Part shown: in pieces, positions 10,278-36,200 of the stretch
Layout of the letters: every line of letters starts with the position of its first letter
How positions within the stretch are numbered: position 1 is the stretch's first letter
Notes under the pieces: generated by a model
The model's database searches: none
What the model was told of the DNA's origin: nothing
The model's input: the letters and a program-made list of their open reading frames with translations, nothing else
Origin: Escherichia phage vB_EcoS_AHS24
Length of the DNA stretch: 46,440 nucleotides
Sequence record: NC_024784.1
Direction: 5' to 3' (one strand)
Translations under genes and position numbers: made by a program

Positions 10278-10928
10278 ATGGCCCATCTCAGCAATGGCAC
10301 ACAAATTTTTTTGCAAGGCTCTAAATCCGAATCGGTAGCCGTAACGGCTATCACTAACGCAGCTCAGCCAGTTATGACGGTAGATGACGCTTCAACTTTC
10401 GCAGCTGGTGACTTCATTGTTGTTGAGTCATCTTCATGGTCTAAACTTTCAGAGAAACAGTTGCGAGTAGTTACATCAACGGCTACAACAATTACCGTTG
10501 AAGGCATTGACACTACTGACCCGCTTCAGTTCCCAGCTGGCGGAACGGCATCGATCTACAAGGTTCTTACCTGGTATGAAATGCCTTGTGTTCAAGACGT
10601 TTCAACTGATGGCGGAGAGCAGCAGTTCGTTACTTATCAGTGCCTGGCTGATGACCGTGAGCAGCAGATTCCAACCTATAAGTCAGCGGTAAACACGACC
10701 TATACGTTTGCTCACGAGTTCACCAACCCGATCTACCCGGTACTCCGTAACTACGACGAGTCTGGCGCGCTGATTGCGATTCGTGCATACGTTCCTAAAG
10801 CTGGCGAAGTTCGACTTTGGACTGGCACTATCGCGTTTAACGAAACTCCAAACGTTTCCGTTAACGAGATCGAAACTGTATCCGTAGCAATTACGGTACG
10901 TGGACGCTATAGCTTCCTGGCTGCATAA
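10278..10928 (+). CDS. major tail protein
   Basis: 216 aa, strong RBS TAAGGAG, followed by terminator; precedes chaperone and tape measure genes. Confidence 0.65.
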   Translation: MAHLSNGTQIFLQGSKSESVAVTAITNAAQPVMTVDDASTFAAGDFIVVESSSWSKLSEKQLRVVTSTATTITVEGIDTTDPLQFPAGGTASIYKVLTWYEMPCVQDVSTDGGEQQFVTYQCLADDREQQIPTYKSAVNTTYTFAHEFTNPIYPVLRNYDESGALIAIRAYVPKAGEVRLWTGTIAFNETPNVSVNEIETVSVAITVRGRYSFLAA

Positions 10929-11668: not shown

Positions 11669-14600
11669 ATGGCAGAATTTGCAGGTATCACTCTTGGCGT
11701 TGACGTTCGCCAGGTTGACCAGGGCATAAAGTCCCTGCAAGAATTTAAACGTGCCAATGAACAGGCGGCAGCTGGAGTTAGCGAGTTCGTTAACGCTGAG
11801 CTGGTTGCGAAGAATCAGGCTCGCGACACTGCAAGGTATCTTTCTGAGCAGAGAAGTGCTTTTCAGTCGCTTCAGTCTGCAATTGATCCAACAGCTTCAA
11901 AATTGCGAAAACTTCAAGATGCAGCAAGTTCTCTTGATAAGGCCTTCTCCGCAGGGGTTGTTCCAGAGGCTGAGTTTTACAGGCTTGGTGAAGCATTAGA
12001 AACGCAAACAAATAGGTTAATAAGGTCTAGGTCAGCATTAACTGAGGAGGGTAGGGCGGCTATAGAAGCTGCAAAAAATAAAGAGTCCGCTGAGAGGCAA
12101 GCGCAATCATTTATTAGGTCGCTTCAAGCGCAGGCTGATGCAGCGACATTAAGTAGGGATGAGTTCTTAAAGTTAAGGGCGGCACAGCTTGGAGTTAGCG
12201 ATCAGGCAGCACCAATAATAGATAGAATAACACAGGCATCAAGTAACAATACTAACGCTATAGCAAATCAAAGTAGGGCGTTTCAGGCGGCTGGGATATC
12301 TGCAGGTCAGTACAATCAGGCTTTAAGGTTCCTTCCTGTACAGATCAATGATATCACCAGCTCAATTGCTAACGGTATGCCTTTATTTATGGTGCTTACC
12401 CAGCAAATACCGCAGATTACAGATTCATTTGGTGGGTTTTCAAATACATTATCAGCTGCGCAAGGTGCAGTTATAGATTATGTATCATCAATAGGCGAGC
12501 TGAGAAGTTCATTTGCTGATGTTAGAACTCTTGGTAATGATGCTATCTTAAGGTTTGGTCGTGCTGCAACTATATTTGGTGGCGCGATAGTTGCTTCATT
12601 AGCTGTTCTTGGTAAAGCCGCTTACGACTCATTTATTGAGGTTAGGCAACTTAATAACGCGATAATTGAAACTGGAAGGTCGTCGACTTTATCAGTTGCC
12701 GCTATCAAGGATTACGCTGATCAGCTAAATGAAACATCAAGGGCAACAAAAGGTTCTATTGGTGACATTTACCAGTCGCTAGTATCAAACGGAAGGCTCA
12801 CTGTTAGTCAGATTAACTTAATCGCTAAGTCTGTTGCTAACCTTTCAGCTGTTAGTTCAAGGTCTGCGGAATCAATAATATCTGACTTTGATAAGATAGC
12901 AAAAGATCCAGTTAAGGGGCTGATAGAGTTAGATAAGCAATTTAACTTTCTTAGCGAAGGGCAGTTGACCCTAGTTAACAACCTAAAAGAAACGGAAGGG
13001 CAAACAGCAGCAGTAACAGCAGCTTTAGAAATATTTGCAGCTAGAAATGAGTCAGTTACAAAGCAGATTGAAGGCTCGCTTACACCTCTTGAATTGGCTT
13101 GGGGCGATTTCCGTAAGTTCGTTTCAGACACATGGGATGCTATAGGTGACAGGACTATAGGAGCTCTAAACCTATTTACTGACGTTATAGCTGCGACTAT
13201 TGAGCAAATAAGACTGATAATTGGCACTGGCGACAAGCTAATAAATGATTTCGTAATACGCGGAATAGAGGCTTTACAAAAGATACCAGGAGCATCTGGC
13301 GTTGGTAATGGAATAGCCGAACAACTAAGGAAGGATAATGACGCAATAGAAAAGGAAAACATAAGGCTAGCTAAATCTATCGCTGATAGGGATGCAAGGG
13401 TTCGCAGGGGCGAGACTGGTTACTTGAGTGTTGGAGAGGGTTCAGAAAGTCAAACTGGAACTTCTGATAGAGATTCAGAATCAAGAAGAAAGGCTTTGGC
13501 CGATGAGATTAAAGCAATTGAGGAGAGAAGTAAAAAGACAAAATCTGGAGCAAAAGAAGAGAGGGATTTGACTATAAGTTATGAGTCTGGCGTTCTAGCT
13601 CTGCAGGCTCAGCTTAAGGTTCTTCAGGAGCACCGCCAGATTAGTGATGTTATCAGTAACGAACGCAAACAGCTTTTTGCGGAGGAAGCTAAGTTTGCAA
13701 TCCTTAATGAAAGGCTTGCAGACGGAACCATCACAAAGCAACAGCGATCATTACTGTTGCAGCAGGATAAAATCTTAGGCCTTGCTCGAGAGAAGGCCGA
13801 GCTTGGTGATCAGATTGTATTGCAGGAGCGCGCCAATAAGTTACTTGATGACAATATCAAGAAGACTCGACAGATTAACGCTGAAGCGGCATCAATAAGT
13901 GCAGGTGCTGGATTGTCTCAGCGTGAAGCTGAAAGGCAGGCTACGCTAAAGGCACTTGAGGCGCAGCAACTATCTAAGGGTGGTAAACTTGATGCTCCAG
14001 ATTATACGGCACTAATTGAAGCGCAAAAAAACGCTTATGCACAGGAAGATGCGCTAAGAATGGACTTTGTCGCTGGTGCGAAAAGTGCCTTTATGGAGAT
14101 ACAGGAGCAAGTTACTGACTTTAACCAGATAGCGAGGGATTTGACTACAATTGCCTTCAATGGGCTTACGGACCAGATTACAAACCTGGTAACAACTGGA
14201 GAGGCTAACTTCAAGGAGTTTACCGCTTCAATTCTTAAACAGATTGCACGCATTGCTACGCAGCTGCTGTTTATTAAGGCTATCGAGTCAACAATTTCTA
14301 GTTTTGGTGGTGGTTCTGCTGGTAACTTGTTTAGCTCATTCTCTAGTGCAATAGGTTTTGCTTCTGGTGGTTATACTGGTAACGGTGGAAAGTATGAGCC
14401 AGCTGGCACTGTGCATAAAGGTGAATTCGTGTTTACTAAGGAGGCAACCTCAAGGATTGGAGTTGATAACCTTTATAAGTTAATGCGCGGATACGCAAAC
14501 GGCGGTGTCATTGGGTCTGGTCCTGGTTATGCTACTGGCGGACTTGTTGGCGGAAGCAACGTTAACGTTGGTGGTGTGAATGTTACAGTTCAAACAGGTA

Positions 14601-15104: not shown

Positions 15105-15148
15105 ATAGCACGAATTGCTAAAGACAAAACTCAAGGATGAGTTATTAT
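15103..15148 (+). promoter_or_regulatory. promoter cassette copy (motif + 22 bp + TATTAT)
   Basis: AAATAGCACGAATTGCTAAA at 15103..15122; leader TTCATCGAGACGAGA follows; upstream of moron 15204. Confidence 0.6.
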
Positions 15149-15203
15149 GTATTCATCGAGACGAGATCGATAAACAAACAAAACAAACAACGAGGATTTA
15201 AAC

Positions 15204-15398
15204 ATGACTAACTTCCCTAAAGCTCAATTCGTACTGGTTTTCTTCCACAACGGCAAGCCTTTCGCAGAGACGATTGATAACACTGGTGATACACCAATGG
15301 TATACACTGGATACCATGACGTGTGGAATGAGCTTTCAGATGAGGATATTTCTTATTACACATCTAAAGCATCAAAAATTATCACTAGTGAAGATTGA
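15204..15398 (+). CDS. hypothetical protein (moron in tail module)
   Basis: 64 aa with own promoter cassette upstream and terminator downstream. Confidence 0.5.
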   Translation: MTNFPKAQFVLVFFHNGKPFAETIDNTGDTPMVYTGYHDVWNELSDEDISYYTSKASKIITSED

Positions 15399-17552: not shown

Positions 17553-17603
17553 ATTTAGTGTAGAATGGCACAAATGGTTAAACAAACAACGAGGTTATAT
17601 GAT

Positions 17604-21992: not shown

Positions 21993-22226
21993 TCCTTTGA
22001 GCCGTGATCTGCAACTGAGCCGCCGTAGCCTCCACCAACCTTTTGCTCAATACCAGCATAACGAATATCAACCTCTCCAGCTGGAACAACTACGCCACCC
22101 TTCCATTTAGCTACGCATACACCAGAGGCCTGAGTTGCACACCATCCGTCAGGTCGCGGGCCAGAAGAACAACCTACTGTCATGATTACTGCTGCTGCGA
22201 TGATTGCTGATTTGATGAAGTTAGTC
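21983..22226 (-). CDS. lipoprotein, putative superinfection-exclusion (Cor/Llp-like)
   Basis: Signal peptide [20 protein letters not shown] with Cys at lipobox position; 81 aa from ATG 22226 with AAGGAA RBS; ORF track extends to 22303. Confidence 0.55.
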
Positions 22227-22267
22227 ATTTTGTATTCCTTAGTAAGTATGTTTCGTTTCGATGGAGT

Positions 22268-22314
22268 AACTATAGCAAAGGCTGCCGCGGTAGTCTTTAG
22301 CAAATCGTGCTATT
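22268..22314 (-). promoter_or_regulatory. promoter cassette copy (minus strand)
   Basis: Minus-strand AAATAGCACGATTTGCTAAAG, 23-bp spacer, TATAGTTAC, leader TCCATCGAAACGAAAC; upstream of lipoprotein/RBP operon. Confidence 0.6.
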
Positions 22315-22667: not shown

Positions 22668-22714
22668 AAAATAGCACGAATAATCAAAACGTATACGACA
22701 TGATTGGGTATAGT
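22668..22714 (+). promoter_or_regulatory. promoter cassette copy (variant motif)
   Basis: AAATAGCACGAATAATCAAA + 22 bp + TATAGT; upstream of Rha-like gene. Confidence 0.5.
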
Positions 22715-22816
22715 GCACTTACAGGCAGCAATGGTGCTGCGTCTATCTACCAAAAAATGGTAGATACAAATGAAATCGCTCCTCAAACTCGGGAGCGGTA
22801 ACGAGGGAGAATAGAT

Positions 22817-25137: not shown

Positions 25138-25182
25138 TATAGCACGAATAGCTAAAACAAGATTAAATAGGTGAGGTATAGT
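25137..25182 (+). promoter_or_regulatory. promoter cassette copy
   Basis: ATATAGCACGAATAGCTAAA + 22 bp + TATAGTTAC + leader ATCGACAACGAGAGG; upstream of Erf/SSB. Confidence 0.6.
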
Positions 25183-25209
25183 TACCTAATCGACAACGAG
25201 AGGAAAAGT

Positions 25210-25860
25210 ATGAATACCAGCGATAAAAACACAAACGTTTTAAAGGCTCTATTTGAGGCCAAGAGCAAGTTTGCGAAGGCTGAAAAGTCCAAGCAGAACT
25301 CGCACCTTAAAAACAAATACGCAACCCTTGATGACGTTCTGGCGGCTGTAGAGCCAGGTTTAGAAGATAGCGGGCTAGTAATGTTCCAGAGTATGCTGGA
25401 ATCTGAAGCTGCAAATCAGATTAAGGTTGAGACTAAGATTTACCATGCTGAGTCTGCTGAATGGGTTTCTTTCCTTACTATCGTTCCTCTGTCTAAAAAT
25501 GATTGCCAAGGGACTGGCTCATCATTAACGTACGCTAGACGCTACGCCATTACGGCAGCCCTCGGCCTTAGCCAGGCTGATGATGATGGCAACCTGGCAG
25601 TCAAGAGTGTAAAAGACTGGAAGCGCGAAGTAGAGAAGGCAGAGACTCGAGATGAACTCGTAGAGGTTTACAAGGCTTGCAAATCACAAGCAGATGCCGC
25701 AACTTGGGGTATCGTGGAGAAATATATTATCGATAAGCAAGCCGAGATTAAGATGGCTTCTGCAAGTGGATTCAACCCAGCAAAACCAAAAGAAGTAACT
25801 AAAGTTGTTGCAAATGCAACGAATGAAGCTGTAGAATCACAATCAATCGAGCAGTTCTAA
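25210..25860 (+). CDS. erf: Erf-family single-strand annealing protein
   Basis: 216 aa from ATG 25210; N-terminal region typical of ERF family; ORF track start 25171 is GTG inside leader. Confidence 0.65.
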   Translation: MNTSDKNTNVLKALFEAKSKFAKAEKSKQNSHLKNKYATLDDVLAAVEPGLEDSGLVMFQSMLESEAANQIKVETKIYHAESAEWVSFLTIVPLSKNDCQGTGSSLTYARRYAITAALGLSQADDDGNLAVKSVKDWKREVEKAETRDELVEVYKACKSQADAATWGIVEKYIIDKQAEIKMASASGFNPAKPKEVTKVVANATNEAVESQSIEQF

Positions 25861-29157: not shown

Positions 29158-30081
29158 CTATGAATGCTTATCTATCAGATCTTGCGGGTTATATAACCTT
29201 CTTTCAAGCCCCATCTTGAAATTGCCACCTTTAGGTATTACGACTTTTAGACCTCTATCATCAGCAACATAAAGCGACTCCTTTTCATCAGCTAAGCAAG
29301 CTATCCTGCACTCTTTATTCCTGAGTTCATAAGCAACCATTTCTAAGTTGTGGTGAGTTAGGCAGTCGTAAGTTGTCCTTTTTGTGCATGCCGATACATG
29401 TAGTGCGTTAATCCAGCCAACAGTGAGGTAGATAGCGCCATCACTACATTTACTTACCGGAACAACCGAGCCGCGAGTGTAGTCTTTTGCGAGATATGAC
29501 TCATTACCCTCTTCATCTATAAACTTTACGTTACAAGGCTCATCTGATAAACCATCCTCGTAAACCATAAAGCATTGCTCGGCTATAATTTCTTCTCCAG
29601 ACCCCTTTATTCCTATTTTGTATTCCCGTTCAGTAATAATTGCTTCAAATCTCGTAAGCTGTGTCATTTCTACAGACTTGGTGCGAGACATTACCTTCTC
29701 GATTGATTCAATGGATGCCTGAGCGCCAAAGTTATATCTCTGAACTCGGCTCGCTGCTTTGTTTGCCTTCACTATGATTTCGACGGGAGTCAAATTAAGC
29801 CAGTCGCCAAGTAAATTTATAGCTTCCGCAAATCTAAGGCCGGAACATTTCATAACCCATCCTATTCCTGAGTCACTTCCGCACTTAGAGCAAACTGCGG
29901 CCCCATTACCTTTTTCGCTTCCTATTTCGTCTGTAAACCTGAATCTGTCAGTACCAAAGCAATAAGGGCACGGCCCGTGCTTCTTGCTAAGGTGTCTATC
30001 ATTCCAACCAAGCTCCTTTGCATAAAATGATTTCCACAATCCAGCCATTTTAGGTATTACTTCATTCTTGTCGTAATTCAT
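29158..30081 (-). CDS. DNA primase (zinc-ribbon + TOPRIM)
   Basis: CPYC...CSKC zinc-binding motif at N-terminus; acidic TOPRIM-like C-terminal half. Confidence 0.65.
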   Translation of the reverse strand: MNYDKNEVIPKMAGLWKSFYAKELGWNDRHLSKKHGPCPYCFGTDRFRFTDEIGSEKGNGAAVCSKCGSDSGIGWVMKCSGLRFAEAINLLGDWLNLTPVEIIVKANKAASRVQRYNFGAQASIESIEKVMSRTKSVEMTQLTRFEAIITEREYKIGIKGSGEEIIAEQCFMVYEDGLSDEPCNVKFIDEEGNESYLAKDYTRGSVVPVSKCSDGAIYLTVGWINALHVSACTKRTTYDCLTHHNLEMVAYELRNKECRIACLADEKESLYVADDRGLKVVIPKGGNFKMGLERRLYNPQDLIDKHS

Positions 30082-30133
30082 TTTTATTTAATCCAATAAA
30101 AAGGTTGTACCGATTATGGCACAACCTTAATTT

Positions 30134-30607
30134 TTACTCTTTAGCTTTTCGTGCTTCTTCTCTTTCTTTCTTAACCTTTCGCCATGATTTACGCTGCGGC
30201 TTGGTTGCTAACTCAGCTTCTGTAACAACTCGAAGCATCTGACGCTTCTTGCATCGCAGTGTTAGAGGCTTGCCGTTACCGTCGAACTGTAAATCAGGTC
30301 GGCAGAATGTAGCCCTGAACCCCTCGCCAGTTCGCTTATATCGATTATGCGCAAGCTGTGCGCCGCGAGCTGAAATCATTCCCCGCTTACACCATTCTTC
30401 TACAGCCTGGCGCGTAACCTTTAGCTGCTTAGCTAGATTGGCCTTGCTGCCGTAGAAGTCCAAGACAATCTCAAGGCGCGCCCTTAATCCTGCTCTCACC
30501 TCATCCTTTAGTACATAGTAACCTGATGGACGCTTACGCGGCTTCTTGTCTTCTGTGCGAATTGTTCCGTTGTTACCATTAAGAGTACGCTTGTCAATTG
30601 AATCCAT
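30134..30607 (-). CDS. HTH DNA-binding protein (putative transcriptional regulator)
   Basis: LAKQLKVTRQAVEEW helix-turn-helix-like segment; basic C-terminus. Confidence 0.5.
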   Translation of the reverse strand: MDSIDKRTLNGNNGTIRTEDKKPRKRPSGYYVLKDEVRAGLRARLEIVLDFYGSKANLAKQLKVTRQAVEEWCKRGMISARGAQLAHNRYKRTGEGFRATFCRPDLQFDGNGKPLTLRCKKRQMLRVVTEAELATKPQRKSWRKVKKEREEARKAKE

Positions 30608-30617
30608 TTTCTCACCT

Positions 30618-30663
30618 CAATAGCACTTTTTGTTAAACATTGGTTTAGATGGCTGTTATTATA
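30618..30663 (+). promoter_or_regulatory. promoter cassette copy (T-rich variant)
   Basis: AATAGCACTTTTTGTTAAA + 21 bp + TATTAT + leader TCAATCGAACGAACA; upstream of helicase. Confidence 0.55.
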
Positions 30664-32643
30664 TCGTCAATCGAACGAACATTAAAGGCATTTGATATTA
30701 TGGAAAACCGATTGAAAACAATACAAAAACAGATTGAAGAATTGGGCGAAGATAAGATTAAAGAGATTCAAACTAAATTCACCTCTTCTAACGGTATGGT
30801 TCCGTATAGCTATCAGTGTGTTATGTACAATGAGATTGCAAAGCGCATTAGTCGCTATGAGCATCCATTTATCGCAATGGCTTCAGTTTCTGCTGGTAAG
30901 ACTCTGGTTTTTGGTATGGTTGCTAAGCGTTGCTCTGAGCTTGGCTTGCCTATGCTTGTTCTTGCTCGTCAGGCAGAGCTGGTTAGCCAGAATGCTTCTG
31001 AGATTTCTGATTACGGGGTTCCTAACTCCATTTATTGCTCTGGGCTTGGAATAAAATCATCTTATTTCCCTGTGGTGGTTGGCTCTGAGGGCACAGTAGT
31101 TGGCGGGCTTAAGAAGTCACTTGGCGATTTCTGTCCTGCGGTAGTTGCTATTGATGAGTGTCACCATATTGATGACCAGGACATAGCGGAGGCAATTGAT
31201 AACAATGAGACTGCGCAACAGGCATCAGATAAGGGGCGTAGCCAGTATACGGTCATCATCCTGACTTTAATGGAGCGCTGCCGTGCTAAGTATGGCAAGA
31301 ATCTTCGTATCTTTGGACTGACTGGTTCTCCTTTCCGTGGAACTACGCCAATAGTTGTTGAAAACAAAAAGGAGTTGGGATTTTGGCGTGAGACGGTCAC
31401 AAATATCGATACAAACTACCTGGTCGAGTTCGGTTCCGTGGTTCCGACAAACTTTGGTGCTACTGATGGCGTTGGTTACGACCTGTCAGAGTTTGATGCA
31501 TCATCTGAAGATGGTGTTCAGGATTACACTAAAGCCCAGCTTGAAGCCATGGATAAAAAGATTCAGGCATCTGGAACAATGACAGCGGAGATAATGAAGA
31601 AAGTATGGCTTGCCGCGAAAAACAGGAATGGAGTTCTGGTAACATGCGCAGGTGAGCGCCATTGCCACGAAGCCGCAAGTTACCTTCCTGAAGGTGAAAA
31701 GTTCTGCATTATAACTGGAAAGACTGGCGAGAAGCAGCGCAAGGAGTTGCTTGATAAGTGCTTTAGCGGGGAGATTAAATATTGCTTTCAGGTTCAGGCG
31801 CTAACCACTGGCGTAAATGTGCCTACATGGGATACAAGCGTTATTCTGCGTAAGATTGGTAGCCTTACGCTCCTGGTTCAGCTACTTGGTCGAGGAATGC
31901 GTAAGCTTAAGAAGCTCCATGAAGATAAAGGAATGGTCAAGAATGACCATTTGGTACTGGACTTCGCAGGAACGATGGACTCTATGGCATCATTGTACTT
32001 CAATCCAATTCTTGAGCAGGCTCAATATCAGCTACGAAAGAGTAATGGCAAGGAGACTAAGCAGTGTCCAGTATGCGGAACAGAGAACAGCTTCTTTGCT
32101 CGACGTTGCATGCATATTGATGAGAATAATAATCGCTGCGAATATTTCTGGGTTAGTCGCACATGTGAAGACCAGAAAGACCCACGAACCGGAAAGGTTA
32201 TCGTTAAAGGCTGCGGAGTTCAGAATGACGTTGCAGCTAAGATTTGTAGGGGTTGCGATTGCACTTTGCTTGATCCAAATCTCAACTTAAGCGGCAAACA
32301 TTACCGCAAGAACGACTGGTTTGATGTTGTTGACTTTAAGGTTGGGCTAACAAAGAACCAATCAGGAATCATCTACAACTACATCCTTGATGATGGCATG
32401 GGTGGGACATTCAAAGCTCATGAGGTTTTCTTTGTAGAGTCTGACCATCGAGTATGTAAAACGCTCTGGTTGAACAATGGAATTAAAGGTCACGTAGTCG
32501 ACATGAACGCTAAGCGATATATGGCTGCATATCGCAATGCTCGCAAGATTATGGAGTATGCGCAGTACATCCATGCTCCTAAGAGGGTAACTCACCGCAA
32601 GACCGCTAAAGGTGGCGATAATATTGCTAATAAGGAGTTCTAA
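30649..32643 (+). CDS. SF2 DNA helicase
   Basis: Walker A SVSAGKTLVF; motif II IDECHH; C-terminal Cys-rich zinc-finger region; possible true start ATG 30700. Confidence 0.8.
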   Translation: MAVIISSIERTLKAFDIMENRLKTIQKQIEELGEDKIKEIQTKFTSSNGMVPYSYQCVMYNEIAKRISRYEHPFIAMASVSAGKTLVFGMVAKRCSELGLPMLVLARQAELVSQNASEISDYGVPNSIYCSGLGIKSSYFPVVVGSEGTVVGGLKKSLGDFCPAVVAIDECHHIDDQDIAEAIDNNETAQQASDKGRSQYTVIILTLMERCRAKYGKNLRIFGLTGSPFRGTTPIVVENKKELGFWRETVTNIDTNYLVEFGSVVPTNFGATDGVGYDLSEFDASSEDGVQDYTKAQLEAMDKKIQASGTMTAEIMKKVWLAAKNRNGVLVTCAGERHCHEAASYLPEGEKFCIITGKTGEKQRKELLDKCFSGEIKYCFQVQALTTGVNVPTWDTSVILRKIGSLTLLVQLLGRGMRKLKKLHEDKGMVKNDHLVLDFAGTMDSMASLYFNPILEQAQYQLRKSNGKETKQCPVCGTENSFFARRCMHIDENNNRCEYFWVSRTCEDQKDPRTGKVIVKGCGVQNDVAAKICRGCDCTLLDPNLNLSGKHYRKNDWFDVVDFKVGLTKNQSGIIYNYILDDGMGGTFKAHEVFFVESDHRVCKTLWLNNGIKGHVVDMNAKRYMAAYRNARKIMEYAQYIHAPKRVTHRKTAKGGDNIANKEF

Positions 32644-33032
32644 TGGTTAAGGTTTTTCACGACAAAACAAGCACGGACAAGGCTAAAGAGGTTGTTCACC
32701 AAATAAATTCAATAGCTTGGGTTCGCCACAACCATCCAGAGATATTTGCTTTTCACGTGAAGAATGAAGGTCTCAAGTCTATCGGCACAGCAATGAAGGA
32801 CAAGCAGGAGGGAGTAATTAAGGGTGTATCAGATATTCTACTGATTGGACCAAATGGCTTTGCCGCAATAGAGCTTAAGCGAGCAATAAAATCAGATAGC
32901 AAGGTTTCAAAGGAGCAAAAGGAGTTCCTGGAAAAGGTATCAGAAACAGGAGGTTACGCGGCAATCTGTTATGGGTTTGAAATGTTTAAGTTGGCAATTA
33001 CAGATTATCTATCAAATAGCACGAATTGCTAA
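32643..33032 (+). CDS. VRR-NUC domain nuclease
   Basis: D...IELK-type nuclease core (DILLIGPNGFAAIELKRA); last codons STNC-stop are encoded by the promoter motif. Confidence 0.55.
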   Translation: MVKVFHDKTSTDKAKEVVHQINSIAWVRHNHPEIFAFHVKNEGLKSIGTAMKDKQEGVIKGVSDILLIGPNGFAAIELKRAIKSDSKVSKEQKEFLEKVSETGGYAAICYGFEMFKLAITDYLSNSTNC

Positions 33033-33059
33033 AGAGATTTCGCAAGGATGCGATATAGT
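33014..33059 (+). promoter_or_regulatory. promoter cassette copy
   Basis: AAATAGCACGAATTGCTAAA + 22 bp + TATAGTTAC + TTCATCGAAACGAAGAGAG; motif also encodes VRR-NUC C-terminus. Confidence 0.65.
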
Positions 33060-33090
33060 TACTTCATCGAAACGAAGAGAGAGAAACAAA

Positions 33091-33285
33091 ATGACTACTA
33101 TCTACACTGAAAAGCTGTACAAGTCACGCAAAACTAGTTATGAATATGAATTAGCAATCACCCCTGAGGGTTATATTCTTGATGATGGAGACGGTTACTC
33201 ATTCGAAGTTAGCCCAACATACAAAGATGATTTAGAGACTGTTAAAAACGCATTCGGCGAAAAATTTGATGAGGTGTCAGAATAA
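33091..33285 (+). CDS. hypothetical protein
   Basis: 64 aa from ATG 33091 downstream of cassette leader. Confidence 0.5.
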   Translation: MTTIYTEKLYKSRKTSYEYELAITPEGYILDDGDGYSFEVSPTYKDDLETVKNAFGEKFDEVSE

Positions 33286-33503
33286 TGAAATTAACCTTTG
33301 ATAAGCAATGGGAACTCTTTCAGGCAATGGTGGCGCAGGAGTTGAGTAAAGCTGGATATAAAAATGATGTTTGGGATTTAGCTTGGTGTCTTGATTATAG
33401 TTTCGAAGAGGATTATCTGAACACTGATATCGAAACATGGCGCGACCGAATGATTGCTGATATCGAAGAAATGAAGAAAGATTGCCCGGAGGATTTTTCA
33501 TGA
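33285..33503 (+). CDS. hypothetical protein
   Basis: 72 aa, ATGA-coupled start. Confidence 0.5.
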   Translation: MKLTFDKQWELFQAMVAQELSKAGYKNDVWDLAWCLDYSFEEDYLNTDIETWRDRMIADIEEMKKDCPEDFS

Positions 33504-33700
33504 TTACTGCGAATTGCGTAATGACGAACGGCTCATTCACCCTGCTCAATGAGTATGAATTCAAACTTGACCCGATTAATGACCAGGTTGAAATAGTTAG
33601 CGATGACGGATTTGCATGGAAGTTACATAATGAATTTGATGGGTACTACGGGTGTAATGATGCGAAAGGTAAGCATGTAAGTTTTCTTGTTTATGAGTAA
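33500..33700 (+). CDS. hypothetical protein
   Basis: 66 aa from ATG 33500 with GGAGG RBS. Confidence 0.45.
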   Translation: MITANCVMTNGSFTLLNEYEFKLDPINDQVEIVSDDGFAWKLHNEFDGYYGCNDAKGKHVSFLVYE

Positions 33701-33744
33701 ATAGCACTTTTTGTTAAAACTAAAATACAAGGATGGATTATATT
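33699..33744 (+). promoter_or_regulatory. promoter cassette copy (T-rich variant)
   Basis: AAATAGCACTTTTTGTTAAA + 22 bp + TATATT. Confidence 0.55.
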
Positions 33745-33774
33745 AATTACATCAGCAAATGAGAGGGTTAAGAG

Positions 33775-33900
33775 ATGAAAATTATAGACAAAGAGATGTT
33801 CGAGATTGCGCAGTCTTTCGCAAATGACGCAGTTAAGACTGGATCTGAATATTGCTGGATGTGCGCTCGAGAATATTTAAAAATGGCTTACGGCCTATGA
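33775..33900 (+). CDS. hypothetical small protein
   Basis: 41 aa ORF after cassette leader, ATGA-coupled to next gene. Confidence 0.35.
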   Translation: MKIIDKEMFEIAQSFANDAVKTGSEYCWMCAREYLKMAYGL

Positions 33901-34136
33901 TAGTTGAAACCGGACGCGCCGCTGTATGGGCGCATTGTGGAGAGGCGGAATTGCAGGATGACATCAAGATGATAGGTAAATACTTTGATATTGATGACAT
34001 ATCTGTAGTTTTCAATGGGAAGTTTAGTTATATGAACCAGCGGCCACGCAAGTATGTAAGAGTTCCAGCAACGCCTAGCCTCGCAATGTATCGTGAGGAA
34101 GGTAAGAAGATATTTAAGAAAGGTGCGAAGAAATGA
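33897..34136 (+). CDS. hypothetical protein
   Basis: 79 aa from ATG 33897. Confidence 0.45.
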   Translation: MIVETGRAAVWAHCGEAELQDDIKMIGKYFDIDDISVVFNGKFSYMNQRPRKYVRVPATPSLAMYREEGKKIFKKGAKK

Positions 34137-34390
34137 ATTTACCTGGTCTAGATTTTGATGAGAGTAAGTATCAGGTTGTGTTTTTTGGTGAGAAGCCTTA
34201 TCGGAAGATTCCTTTCTCTGAGTGGATTCCTCCGGACTACCTCGATGTACTGGTGCAAATTGAGATTGGTAAAGCTGAGTTGATGTACTATTCGCCAGGT
34301 TGCAATATGATGATGCCTAGTGAGTATTCACCAGCAATTTCTGCTCTAGAAACTGAGTTTCTTGATTACTGGCTAAAAGAAGTAAAATAG
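34133..34390 (+). CDS. hypothetical protein
   Basis: 85 aa, ATGA-coupled. Confidence 0.5.
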   Translation: MNLPGLDFDESKYQVVFFGEKPYRKIPFSEWIPPDYLDVLVQIEIGKAELMYYSPGCNMMMPSEYSPAISALETEFLDYWLKEVK

Positions 34391-34430
34391 CACTTTTTGT
34401 TAAAACACATCGCCATGGATGGCGTATAGT
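34385..34430 (+). promoter_or_regulatory. promoter cassette copy (T-rich variant)
   Basis: AAATAGCACTTTTTGTTAAA + 22 bp + TATAGT + TTCATCGAAACGAGAGACG; upstream of phosphoesterase. Confidence 0.6.
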
Positions 34431-34541
34431 GTGTTCATCGAAACGAGAGACGATTCAGATGAAAACATTACTACCGTTGATGGCTATGCCATTAACCTTT
34501 ATAATCATGTACTTCATAATCTGCTAACAGGAAATTAAATA

Positions 34542-35675
34542 ATGGCTATAGCTAAAATCACCAACGAAGAGTTAAAGCAAGAACTGGCTAACGGTATGAC
34601 TAACAAGGCAATCGCAGAGAAGTACGGTATGAATATTCGTAACGTAGAGCTGCGTCGCAGCAAGTTGGCTAAGGCTGGGGATGGTCACGGTCGCGATGTG
34701 AGTAACCTAATTCCTCAGGGCTACATGGTTAAAGGTGTATCTAGCCTTGTTGATAATGATGGCAATGTGAAGTTGCAATGGGTTAAGTCCTCTGTTGATG
34801 CAGAGAAGCTTGAGGAGATGATGAATCAAGCGCGAGAGGCATTCTCTAGCGAGCTACCAAAAGAAAAAGCAGTTAAATCTGAAGGTCTGAATTTTGATGA
34901 AGATACTTTAGCTATGTATCCAGTATTTGACCTTCACATTGGCGCAATGGCCCACAAGCATGAGTGCGGAGAAAACTACGACACAGCAACGGCAGAGAAA
35001 GTAATGAACGATTATTTTGACTACGCCGTACAGAAATCTCCAAATTCAAAGAATGCTGTACTAGTGCTAGGAGGTGATCTGCTTCATTATGATTCTTTGG
35101 AAGCCAAAACTCCAGCCAGTGGTCACATCCTGGACAGTGACAGTCGCTACGCCAAGATTGTTTATGTTTGCATTCGAGCGGTTCGCCGCGCAATTCGAAA
35201 CATGCTTAGCAAACATGAAAACGTAGAGGTTAAAGTTATATCTGGTAATCATGATGAAAGTGGTATGGTTTGGTTGCGGGCTGCGCTTGCTGCATTTTAT
35301 GAGGAAGAGCCACGCGTTAGTATTGATGTTAGTCCCGCGGCAATGATGGTAACTAAGTTTGGTTCTACAATGCTTGGTTTCACTCACGGGCATCAAATGC
35401 GTAAAGCTGATACTCGCCTTTCGGTTATGGCTACTGACTGGCGACGTGACTTTGGTTTAAGTGATTATGTATACACCCACTCAGGACACTGGCATTCACA
35501 GAAGATTACAGAGACAAATCTTGGTATTGATGAGGTTCATGGTCAGCTTGGTTCACCAGATGCATATAGTGCGAATGGTGGATGGCGCTCACAAAGGCAG
35601 GCCGCGGTAATCATCTATCATAAAGAGTTTGGTGAGGTTGGTCGCTTTATCTGCCGTCCAGAAATGTTCAAATAA
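34542..35675 (+). CDS. metallophosphoesterase with N-terminal HTH-like domain
   Basis: Calcineurin-like motifs DLHIG, GGDLLH, GNHDE, THGH, GHWH; N-terminal KAIAEKYGMNIRNV HTH-like. Confidence 0.65.
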   Translation: MAIAKITNEELKQELANGMTNKAIAEKYGMNIRNVELRRSKLAKAGDGHGRDVSNLIPQGYMVKGVSSLVDNDGNVKLQWVKSSVDAEKLEEMMNQAREAFSSELPKEKAVKSEGLNFDEDTLAMYPVFDLHIGAMAHKHECGENYDTATAEKVMNDYFDYAVQKSPNSKNAVLVLGGDLLHYDSLEAKTPASGHILDSDSRYAKIVYVCIRAVRRAIRNMLSKHENVEVKVISGNHDESGMVWLRAALAAFYEEEPRVSIDVSPAAMMVTKFGSTMLGFTHGHQMRKADTRLSVMATDWRRDFGLSDYVYTHSGHWHSQKITETNLGIDEVHGQLGSPDAYSANGGWRSQRQAAVIIYHKEFGEVGRFICRPEMFK

Positions 35676-35693
35676 TATCACTTTTTGTTAAAG
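35674..35693 (+). promoter_or_regulatory. degenerate promoter-motif copy
   Basis: AATATCACTTTTTGTTAAAG; no TATAGT at fixed spacing; hairpin AAGCC-attcgag-GCTT follows. Confidence 0.35.
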
Positions 35694-35740
35694 CCATTCG
35701 AGGCTTTTGAGATGCGTCAGCTACAGATATAGGAATCAAA

Positions 35741-35938
35741 ATGATTACAGAGATGATTTTAGTTGCAAGCCTTTCATCTCCATTGGTATCTCAACAGTAT
35801 TGTGAACTTGGAAAAGAGATTTACCATGAAGGAGTGGAATTAAGAACGGTTGTTGATTGGCTTAATCACAGCACGATGAATATTGATGATAAAAAGATTG
35901 TCCTTGAGTGCTATATAGTGGAGGCAAATAAAGTCTAA
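35741..35938 (+). CDS. hypothetical protein
   Basis: 65 aa ORF. Confidence 0.45.
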   Translation: MITEMILVASLSSPLVSQQYCELGKEIYHEGVELRTVVDWLNHSTMNIDDKKIVLECYIVEANKV

Positions 35939-35981
35939 ATAGCACGAATTGCTAAAACGAAAATCAAAAGATGGGGTATAG
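35936..35981 (+). promoter_or_regulatory. promoter cassette copy
   Basis: AAATAGCACGAATTGCTAAA + 22 bp + TATAGTTAC within hairpin GATGGGG/CCCCATC + leader AAACGAGAGGA. Confidence 0.65.
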
Positions 35982-36014
35982 TTACCCCATCTAAACAAAC
36001 GAGAGGATACAAAG

Positions 36015-36200
36015 ATGGCTAAATTCACACAATCAGATGCACAAATCGAAGTTAAAGATGTTGGTTTTGGTAAGACCTTTAAGATTGCGCAGGCATACGG
36101 CTCTAGCGAAGATGATATAAAGGTTGACACTATTAACCTTACGTCTAAAAATGCACGTGAAATCGCTTATGCAATCCTTGCCGCACTTGGAGAGCGTTAA
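36015..36200 (+). CDS. hypothetical protein
   Basis: 61 aa, GAGAGG RBS. Confidence 0.45.
   Translation: MAKFTQSDAQIEVKDVGFGKTFKIAQAYGSSEDDIKVDTINLTSKNAREIAYAILAALGER

Follow-up and report, generated by a model that had tools for sequence, protein, structure and literature searches.

A repeated intergenic cassette of T1-like phages, examined in Escherichia phage vB_EcoS_AHS24, is probably a -35-less promoter with an overlapping hairpin

The window, that is the whole stretch of 46,440 nucleotides (nt) that was analysed (NC_024784.1), is the complete genome of Escherichia phage vB_EcoS_AHS24, a T1-like phage of the genus Rogunavirus in the Drexlerviridae (sister-phage genome publication: PMC4070988); over positions 30000-36000 it matches Escherichia phage bV_EcoS_AHP24 at 100%. 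We consider here a conserved block at 33032-33093, lying between a gene for a 129-amino-acid (aa) VRR-NUC protein and a gene of 64 aa, which a first-pass annotation had described as a conserved transcribed leader that also reads as a short conserved peptide, M-x-Y-S-Y-F-I-E-T-R. The GenBank records of this group carry five to ten consensus-type promoters per genome, and none is placed at this block. The locus comprises the following features:

33016..33033, plus strand: upstream repeat (direct repeat, DR) ATAGCACGAATTGCTAAA with the palindrome TAGCA-N5-TGCTA; its consensus has been published for phage TLS (PMC11447400)
33030-33032: TAA stop codon of the upstream VRR-NUC gene, within the repeat
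33040..33053, plus strand: spacer hairpin TCGCA-AGGA-TGCGA, at -26..-13
33054..33059, plus strand: hexamer TATAGT, read as the -10 element
33066..33090, plus strand: predicted transcription start (+1, the A of CATCG, placed by spacing) and 25-nt A-rich leader AUCGAAACGAAGAGAGAGAAACAAA with the Shine-Dalgarno-like GAGAG
33091..33285, plus strand: downstream gene, 64 aa, MTTIYTEKL...

Both the block and the motif that precedes it recur in the genome. The upstream motif ATAGCACGAATTGCTAAA has nine matches with at most three mismatches, against 0.04 expected, and the block TAnnnT-N5-CATCGAAACGA has eight with at most two, against 0.37 expected, a count that none of 100 shuffles reaches; the upstream motif precedes every one of these eight, and the conserved block noticed at first reading thus exists. 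Full cassettes number 14 and occur on both strands, with a common order: the repeat, a spacer of 19-21 nt, a -10 hexamer TAnnnT, C-A, an A-rich leader with a Shine-Dalgarno sequence, and the ATG of a gene. In all 14 the hexamer is found at the proper spacing and the gene starts 22-50 nt past the predicted +1. Besides the one at 33016, these are:

15105..15206, plus strand: cassette; DR 15105-15122, -10 TATTAT 15143-15148, +1 15155, ATG 15204
22226..22313, minus strand: cassette of a lipoprotein gene; DR 22296-22313, -10 TATAGT 22269-22274, +1 22262, ATG 22228
25139..25212, plus strand: cassette of Erf; DR 25139-25156, -10 TATAGT 25177-25182, +1 25189, ATG 25210
30620..30702, plus strand: cassette of a helicase gene; DR 30620-30637, -10 TATTAT 30657-30662, +1 30669, ATG 30700
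33701..33777, plus strand: cassette; DR 33701-33718, -10 TATATT 33739-33744, +1 33751, ATG 33775
34387..34461, plus strand: cassette of a small open reading frame (micro-ORF); DR 34387-34404, hairpin CGCCA-TGGA-TGGCG, -10 TATAGT 34425-34430, +1 34437, ATG 34459
35939..36017, plus strand: cassette; DR 35939-35956, -10 TATAGT 35977-35982, +1 35989, ATG 36015
35969-35992, plus strand: hairpin (A)GATGGGGTA/TACCCCATC(T) of 9-10 base pairs (bp), bracketing the -10 of the 35939 cassette
39928..40013, minus strand: cassette; DR 39996-40013, -10 TATATT 39969-39974, +1 39962, ATG 39930
40127..40211, minus strand: cassette; DR 40194-40211, -10 TATATT 40167-40172, probable gene ATG 40129; its spacer holds the terminator-like hairpin ACCCGC-TTCG-GCGGGT
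41093..41173, minus strand: cassette; DR 41156-41173, -10 TATATT 41130-41135, +1 41123, ATG 41095
41934..42008, minus strand: cassette; DR 41991-42008, -10 TATAGT 41964-41969, +1 41957, ATG 41936
43668..43745, plus strand: cassette; DR 43668-43685, hairpin GGGTA...TACCC bracketing the -10 TATGAT 43706-43711, +1 43718, ATG 43743
44511..44589, plus strand: cassette; DR 44511-44528, -10 TACCAT 44549-44554, +1 44561, ATG 44587

For comparison, the VRR-NUC protein as a query returned only six related loci, and a pattern scan of viral contigs gave mostly single chance matches plus fragments of T1-like genomes; we therefore chose complete reference genomes from four genera, namely AHS24, T1, TLS and Rtp. 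A search of these for ATAGCAC-N3-TTG-N-TAAA with at most two mismatches yields 79 copies of the repeat. Scored by a filter of the form xAxxxT that agrees with TATAAT at four or more of six positions, a -10-like hexamer lies 19-21 nt downstream of 69 of the 79, against a background of 6%; the distance is 20 nt in most copies, and it is kept whether a hairpin brackets the hexamer or sits fully upstream of it. Aligned on the hexamer (variants include TATAGT, TATATT, TATTAT, TATGAT, TACCAT, TAAAGT and CATAAT), the 69 copies show conservation of 0.88 for T-12 and 0.83 for T-10 with variable middle positions, while that of A-11 and T-7, which the filter fixes, is not independent. A G is found at -14 in 78% of copies and a T at -15 in 46%, the combination TG at -15/-14 occurring in some AHS24 copies only. 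The seventh nucleotide after the hexamer, the predicted +1, is an A in 84% of copies, with a C just before it; the following 20 nt are 48% A, against 29% genome-wide in the four genomes, and contain a Shine-Dalgarno sequence, and the median position of the start codon is +26. The repeat spans -50..-33; the midpoint of its dyad TAGCA-N5-TGCTA falls at about -42, in a fixed phasing to the -10.

What the cassettes lack is a -35 hexamer: none is present 16-18 bp upstream of the -10, the segment -35..-30 is unconserved beyond the TAAA end of the repeat, and a scan with a two-hexamer consensus is not enriched (25 matches, 35 expected). The TTGCTA of the repeat, at -40..-35, was considered as the -35 of a canonical two-hexamer sigma-70 promoter and rejected because it stands 22 bp from the -10. 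The promoter PrecE of T1 has a canonical TTGACT-16-TATAAT followed by the same ggattCATCGTAAACGAAGGAG start region and leader, and no repeat; this layout favours taking the cassette hexamer as a -10 and the A of CATCG as the predicted +1. The repeat also carries stop codons in all three frames (an abutting TAA, TAG at positions 2-4 and TAA at 15-17), and in 46 of 58 cases a co-directional upstream ORF stops in or at it (e.g. 33030-33032, 34388-34390 and 35936-35938), so that genes run directly into the next promoter module.

The frame that suggested a peptide has its ATG at -18..-16, takes the -10 hexamer TATAGT as Y-S and the start of the leader, ATC-GAA-ACG-AGA, as I-E-T-R, which is thus simply AUCGAAACGAG. 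All the peptide readings quoted in the first-pass annotation are reproduced, several of them at coordinates that differ by 1-5 nt (the ATG lies at 33048, not 33047; others at 15137, 35971 and 44543), and they turn out to be only those copies that possess a start codon. In the 14 AHS24 cassettes the codon at -18 is ATG in six, GTG in one and no start codon in seven (GGC, GTC, CAA, TTA, GGC, AAT, CTT); across the 69 copies it is ATG in 14 (six in AHS24, seven in Rtp), GTG or TTG in five and no start in 50. Copies without a start codon still read SCYSYPIKTR, ICYSYPIDN or VGYSYFIETK, in a general pattern xxYSYPIETK; hence the similarity stems from conservation of the DNA. Over the 69 copies the frame is closed after 0 to more than 25 codons and stands in variable register to the downstream gene. 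The mean information at codon positions 1, 2 and 3 is 0.59, 0.66 and 0.58 bits, without three-nucleotide periodicity even though the filter-fixed A-11 and T-7 fall on positions 2 and 3, and the strongest unfiltered positions (T-12, A+1, T-10 and G-14) have no codon phase. Among orthologues of the 33016 cassette the leader differs by indels of 8, 8, 5 and 1 nt, and the ATG is lost in phage phiEB49 and in T1. An AAGGA abuts the -18 ATG without the spacing for initiation and lies in the hairpin; in the 33016 cassette the A of that ATG (33048-33050) closes the loop and its TG opens the 3' arm.

That M-x-Y-S-Y-F-I-E-T-R is a genuine short leader peptide or upstream ORF, translated to regulate the downstream gene, might be argued from the ATG at the same position in the six AHS24 and seven Rtp copies with their similar-looking translations, and from GenBank, where the AHP24 frame at 34419 is a coding sequence (CDS). 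We find this hardly credible, given a start codon absent from 50 of 69 copies, an unconserved length and C-terminus, the variable frame to the gene, indels that are not multiples of three, the lack of codon periodicity and of a usable Shine-Dalgarno spacing, and an ATG that is engaged in hairpin pairing and precedes the predicted start site. The CDS in question, AHP24_45 (39 aa, window 34419-34538), starts at the -18 ATG and crosses the -10 and the leader, and its frame ends after 16-17 codons in phiEB49 and in a further related sequence, L127; to judge by this layout it is probably a mis-annotation. The conserved 'peptide' is an in-frame artefact of promoter DNA and no protein-coding feature: conservation is insensitive to codon position and the frame is frequently disrupted, as the first-pass annotation had foreseen for its alternative of conservation at the RNA or DNA level, and the conservation is that of a DNA- and RNA-level regulatory signal. 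Its transcribed leader survives in part, the 3' half (CATCGAAACGAGAGG...) probably serving as an actual 5' leader, short and bearing a Shine-Dalgarno sequence, and the 5' half (ATG-nGn-TATAGT-TAC) being better understood as promoter DNA.

From the computed architecture, spacing, conservation pattern, missing coding signatures, and hairpin enrichment and strand asymmetry (see below), we consider it probable, at roughly 0.75, that the block is not coding and is the core of a repeated intergenic -35-less promoter cassette of the T1-like phages, an element that is partly published and functionally uncharacterised and whose conservation is real. The mechanism that we infer extends to the exact start site, activation via the repeat, the identity of its binding protein and the terminator function. 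In it, the repeat aaATAGCAC-N3-TTGnTAAA, usually also providing the stop codon of the upstream gene, would be bound by a phage DNA-binding protein, for which the regulator Pir is the best candidate, at a centre of about -42, i.e. the class II position, from which RNA polymerase would be recruited. Host sigma-70 would read TAnnnT, commonly with the extended -10 G at -14, and transcription would start at the A seven nucleotides downstream; the A-rich leader of about 25 nt would supply the Shine-Dalgarno sequence for the start codon of the gene. The variable-sequence hairpin over the spacer, -10 and discriminator would act in read-through RNA as a terminator, attenuator or 3'-end stabiliser, and transcripts begun at +1, lacking its 5' arm, would escape it.

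The recurrent hairpins pointed out in the first-pass annotation are supported statistically, with covariation. Compared with dinucleotide shuffles, the segment -32..+8 has a mean folding z of -2.44, with 58% of copies below -2 (t-test p = 4e-15). Against a null in which the 5' region of one copy is paired with the 3' region of another, stems of at least 6 bp that bracket the hexamer occur in 35% of copies versus 5%, those of at least 8 bp in 14% versus 0.2%, and the observed mean is reached by none of 5000 permutations. Mismatches internal to the helices are G·T in 13 cases and A·C in 2 (p = 0.007), a bias which indicates pairing of the sense strand that tolerates wobble, i.e. pairing in RNA. 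The folding signal is also strong where a co-directional ORF ends just upstream (mean z -2.74, n = 58) and weak at divergent junctions and operon starts (-0.84, n = 11; p = 0.002).

Three layouts can be told apart. In one, the arms bracket the hexamer, as in the AHS24 copies at 35939 and 43668 and in T1 with the arms GGGGTA..TACCCC, GGGGTT..AACCCC, AGGCCA..TGGCCT, GGGGAA..TTCCCC and AGGGCA..TGCCCT. Another has a hairpin with an NGGA loop immediately upstream of the hexamer: a cassette subfamily of AHS24 and Rtp carries the 5-bp hairpin NNNCA-NGGA-TGNNN at -26..-13, with stems such as TCGCA/TGCGA, CGCCA/TGGCG, ACTCA/TGAGT and ATCCA/TGGAT. In a set of 11 such sequences, which was picked by eye, 90.9% of cells pair versus 67% in shuffles, with 14 cells changed on both sides and none of 500 shuffles reaching the value; the pairing is lost on sliding the 3' partner. 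The -18 ATG of this subfamily is the last loop base followed by an invariant T-G that pairs with an invariant C-A; elsewhere, as at 35969-35992, GATG is paired to CATC at the start site. The third layout places a GC-rich tetraloop hairpin in the spacer, with the hexamer and discriminator as a T-rich tail, as in AHS24 at 40211 on the minus strand and in T1 at 39976 and 41956, both of which are annotated terminators. As the predicted +1 falls in or after the 3' arm, the whole hairpin would be present only in read-through transcripts from upstream, and the hairpins would most simply serve the upstream unit, as its terminator, attenuator or 3'-end stabiliser, from within the spacer of the promoter that follows. 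Past the regulator gene of T1 (about 35930-35995, minus strand) and of TLS (35178-35242, minus strand), a hairpin of 7-8 bp comes after the repeat, its loop holding a -10-like hexamer, and a T-run comes next. The hairpin is an annotated terminator in both phages, and nowhere else is a promoter nested within a terminator so clearly seen. A search of the window against Rfam at the gathering threshold returned a tRNA at 45859-45931 as its sole match and none for the cassette, and a known RNA family was rejected on this ground.

As to the protein that might bind the repeat, the 21-nt direct repeat of TLS, aaATAGCACnnnTTGnTAAAA, is also known from T1, Rtp and Rogue1, and its function was left open, with a stoperator, an enhancer site or an UP element being suggested (PMC11447400). 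The only predicted transcription factor common to all four genera is encoded beside the primase gene:

30134..30607, minus strand: Cro-like helix-turn-helix regulator, candidate repeat-binding protein; 53% identity to T1 Pir/Orf23

Pfam gives only sub-threshold matches of this protein to helix-turn-helix domains of the Cro/YdaS type, and no relative of solved structure is found at E <= 1. T1 Orf65 was rejected as a universal repeat-binding protein, having no homologue in AHS24 or Rtp. T1 reporter assays show activation of Pdam by Pir and repression of Pir's own promoter (PMC6737242). A full repeat cassette is present in the Pdam fragment, and an antisense repeat in the pir fragment just downstream of a TATAAT, in the early transcribed region. 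AHS24 has the same kind of face-to-face layout: its minus-strand TATAAT is at about 30662-30657, and the repeat at 30620-30637 separates it from the ATG of the regulator. At 30607-30700 the -10 boxes of the helicase cassette and of the regulator's divergent promoter overlap, as they do in T1 and TLS, and the arrangement looks like a genetic switch.

Several observations weigh against the cassette being a promoter that works as proposed. The TTGCTA of the repeat resembles a -35 element at 22 bp, and a different mode of recognition may apply. No mapped transcription start sites for these cassettes, for T1 or for the Drexlerviridae were found in the literature searched. Most of the bracket hairpins are without a U-tract and so cannot generally be classical intrinsic terminators; some copies do have U-tracts, and annotated terminators are among them in T1 and TLS. 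Porf65 of T1 contains a repeat cassette, yet is reported as Pir-independent (PMC6737242), and Phol and PrecE of T1 are Pir-responsive with no full repeat in the cloned 150 bp; because these results count against a simple one-to-one link, we put activation by Pir at the repeat at about even odds. Finally, cassette copies within and between genomes share descent, so that the statistics overcount independent events.

The -10, start and leader may be right and the repeat not an activator site, being instead a repressor or stoperator site, an UP-like element, or a recombination or boundary sequence, with promoters that are constitutive on an extended -10. G-14 in 78% of copies makes -35-independent activity plausible; the TLS authors propose a stoperator or UP element (PMC11447400); the antisense repeat in the early transcribed region of the regulator's own gene is where repression would be expected; copies without a -10 abut the start of the tail-fibre gene; and the repeat has its stop codons in three frames, while the same cassette precedes different genes in relatives. 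Still, we regard this as rather unlikely: the fixed 20-nt phasing and centring at -42 are needed for activation and not for a roadblock, the conserved G/C core (GCAC...TTGC) sets the repeat apart from UP elements, and Pdam of T1, with its repeat cassette, is activated by Pir. Alternatively, transcription could start further upstream, from TGnTAAAA of the repeat as an extended -10 or from distant promoters only, and the hairpin with CATCGAAACGAG would be an RNA element in the 5' untranslated region (UTR), for instance a stem-loop that stabilises the 5' terminus, or a site where an endonuclease makes the mature 5' end at AUCGAAAC. The wobble bias of the sense strand, which argues for RNA, would suit such an element, as would the many 5' arms that begin at about -25, near the start expected from TGnTAAAA, and the 3' arms that often end exactly at -1. 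But TAAAAn does not end in the T conserved in -10 hexamers, the downstream hexamer has the sigma-70 signature G-14 and stays 20 nt from the repeat even outside the hairpin, PrecE of T1 puts a canonical -35/-10 before the same CATCG leader, and hairpins that are weak without a co-directional upstream gene are unexpected for a 5' UTR element of the downstream mRNA, all of which makes an upstream start distinctly improbable.

In about a third of the copies the arms enclose the hexamer precisely, holding TAnnn(T) in a loop of about 10 nt, which could also point to inverted repeats that act in DNA, where extrusion of a cruciform or hairpin would present the -10 as a single-stranded loop and make firing dependent on supercoiling. 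The excess of G·T over A·C, 13 to 2, indicates pairing in one strand, many hairpins lie fully upstream of the hexamer and the hairpins track the presence of an upstream gene, and we hence consider this explanation highly improbable. An extension of the promoter-cassette reading, in which the inverted repeats, in the DNA itself or in the non-template strand within the open complex, would also expose TAnnnT as a single-stranded loop, with firing by the host sigma-70 polymerase gated by supercoiling or incoming transcription in addition to a family-wide Pir-dependent switch, appears very unlikely to us; if true, such gating by DNA hairpins would parallel, for the host polymerase, the hairpin promoters of phage N4.

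The published TLS repeat is the same element, in the same orientation to transcription and with the same A/T/G subtypes of the middle triplet (PMC11447400); it lies about 76 nt upstream of start codons, while in AHS24 the repeat starts at -50/-52 and genes start at about +26. That paper describes the repeat alone, without the phased -10, the start and leader or the overlap of hairpin and promoter, and lists some adjacent hairpins separately as terminators (T57 and T62, beside DR10 and DR12), unconnected to the repeats. The nearest analogues are the PeSL and PmSL composite promoter-terminator cassettes of T4-type phages (Arbiol 2010, PMC2839356; Comeau 2014, PMC4122927), in which a host-type promoter goes together with a stem-loop that has G-T pairs and lies mostly between the boxes or over the -10. 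Like the AHS24 cassette, these are intergenic among small early genes, extend from an upstream stop codon to a Shine-Dalgarno sequence and ATG, and overlap promoter and stem-loop in one module. PeSLs and PmSLs are also tied to gene replacement between relatives, as the AHS24 cassette may be. The two kinds are not homologous in sequence, and a near-consensus -35 stands in PeSLs where the cassette has a palindromic repeat at -50..-33; given the repeat in place of a -35, the cassette is nearer in logic to the PmSLs with Mot boxes. Both the terminator and the promoter activity of PeSLs have been tested experimentally, whereas the activity of the cassette is predicted here from sequence. As for gene replacement, gene content behind orthologous cassettes differs in two examples only, both in phiEB49 and L127: a different gene follows the 33016 cassette, and a 67-aa gene is inserted after the 34387 cassette. 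The regions concerned lie around 10430-10470 and 11800-12195 in these two sequences, and the differences are consistent with modular exchange mediated by the cassette.

Class II activator promoters include those bound by lambda cI at PRM and those with CRP or FNR sites at -41.5. The cassette is like them in having a dyad site at about -42 over a missing or poor -35, a good -10 and a divergent overlapping pair at the regulator; it differs in that its repeat has asymmetric A-rich flanks and is strictly directional, and in that the activator is only a candidate. With the middle promoters of T4 that depend on MotA and AsiA it shares the want of a -35, a TAnnnT -10 and an upstream box containing TGCT. 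The Mot box is, however, centred at -30 and 11-13 bp from the -10, and the TTGCTA of the cassette at -40..-35 and 22 bp from it, a spacing on which a MotA-type middle promoter was rejected; no MotA or AsiA homologue is annotated in the GenBank record examined.

Some further repeat-like sequences and gene starts were encountered in the survey. A degenerate copy at 22671-22716 has three mismatches and a TATAGT at 20 nt, about 95 nt upstream of a gene for a Rha-domain protein, and may by this arrangement be a fifteenth promoter; another, at 35675-35692 (ATATCAC...), lacks a properly spaced -10. Copies resembling the repeat but with no -10 hexamer lie on or beside the start of the large tail-fibre (J-like) gene at 17565-17582 in AHS24, 25021 in T1 and 24908 in TLS, and may be a regulatory site of another, non-promoter kind. 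The mechanical ORF list begins Erf (25171-25860) with the GTG at 25171, which is position -18 of the promoter; the plausible start is the annotated ATG at 25210, which has GAGAGG before it. The annotated start codon of AHP24_57 (window 40013-40195, minus strand) falls in the last bases of the repeat and its ORF crosses the spacer hairpin and the -10; the in-frame ATG at 40129, with AAGGTG 8 nt upstream, is a better fit to the cassette layout.

The 34387 cassette leads into the micro-ORF:

34459..34527, plus strand: hydrophobic micro-ORF of 22 codons (MKTLLPLMAMPLTFIIMYFIIC), conserved in relatives

The first-pass annotation had noticed this micro-ORF, placing it at 34457..34522 with 21 aa; its conservation as an ORF in relatives bears this out, with the extent corrected to 34459..34527 including the stop and the length to 22 aa. 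It is kept in JK06, e4/1c, phiKP26, phiEB49 and L127, in the last two despite the 67-aa gene between the promoter and the micro-ORF, to which it is joined by an ATGA overlap. Inside it a 9-bp hairpin at 34476-34496 is followed by CTTTATAAT, and there is one compensatory change, A-T to C-G, in e4/1c and JK06. To go by these features, it could encode a small membrane peptide, act as an attenuator, or do both.

T1-like phages (Drexlerviridae) are frequent in phage therapy collections and as laboratory contaminants. Papers on their genomes report few recognisable sigma-70 promoters and leave the ATAGCAC...TAAA repeat as a feature of unknown function. No new kind of mechanism is revealed by the promoter-cassette reading, which would assign about 14-20 promoters with predicted start sites to each T1-like genome, explain the terminators annotated beside repeats, flag small ORFs that have been mis-annotated through promoter DNA, and suggest a target for the conserved Cro-like regulator.

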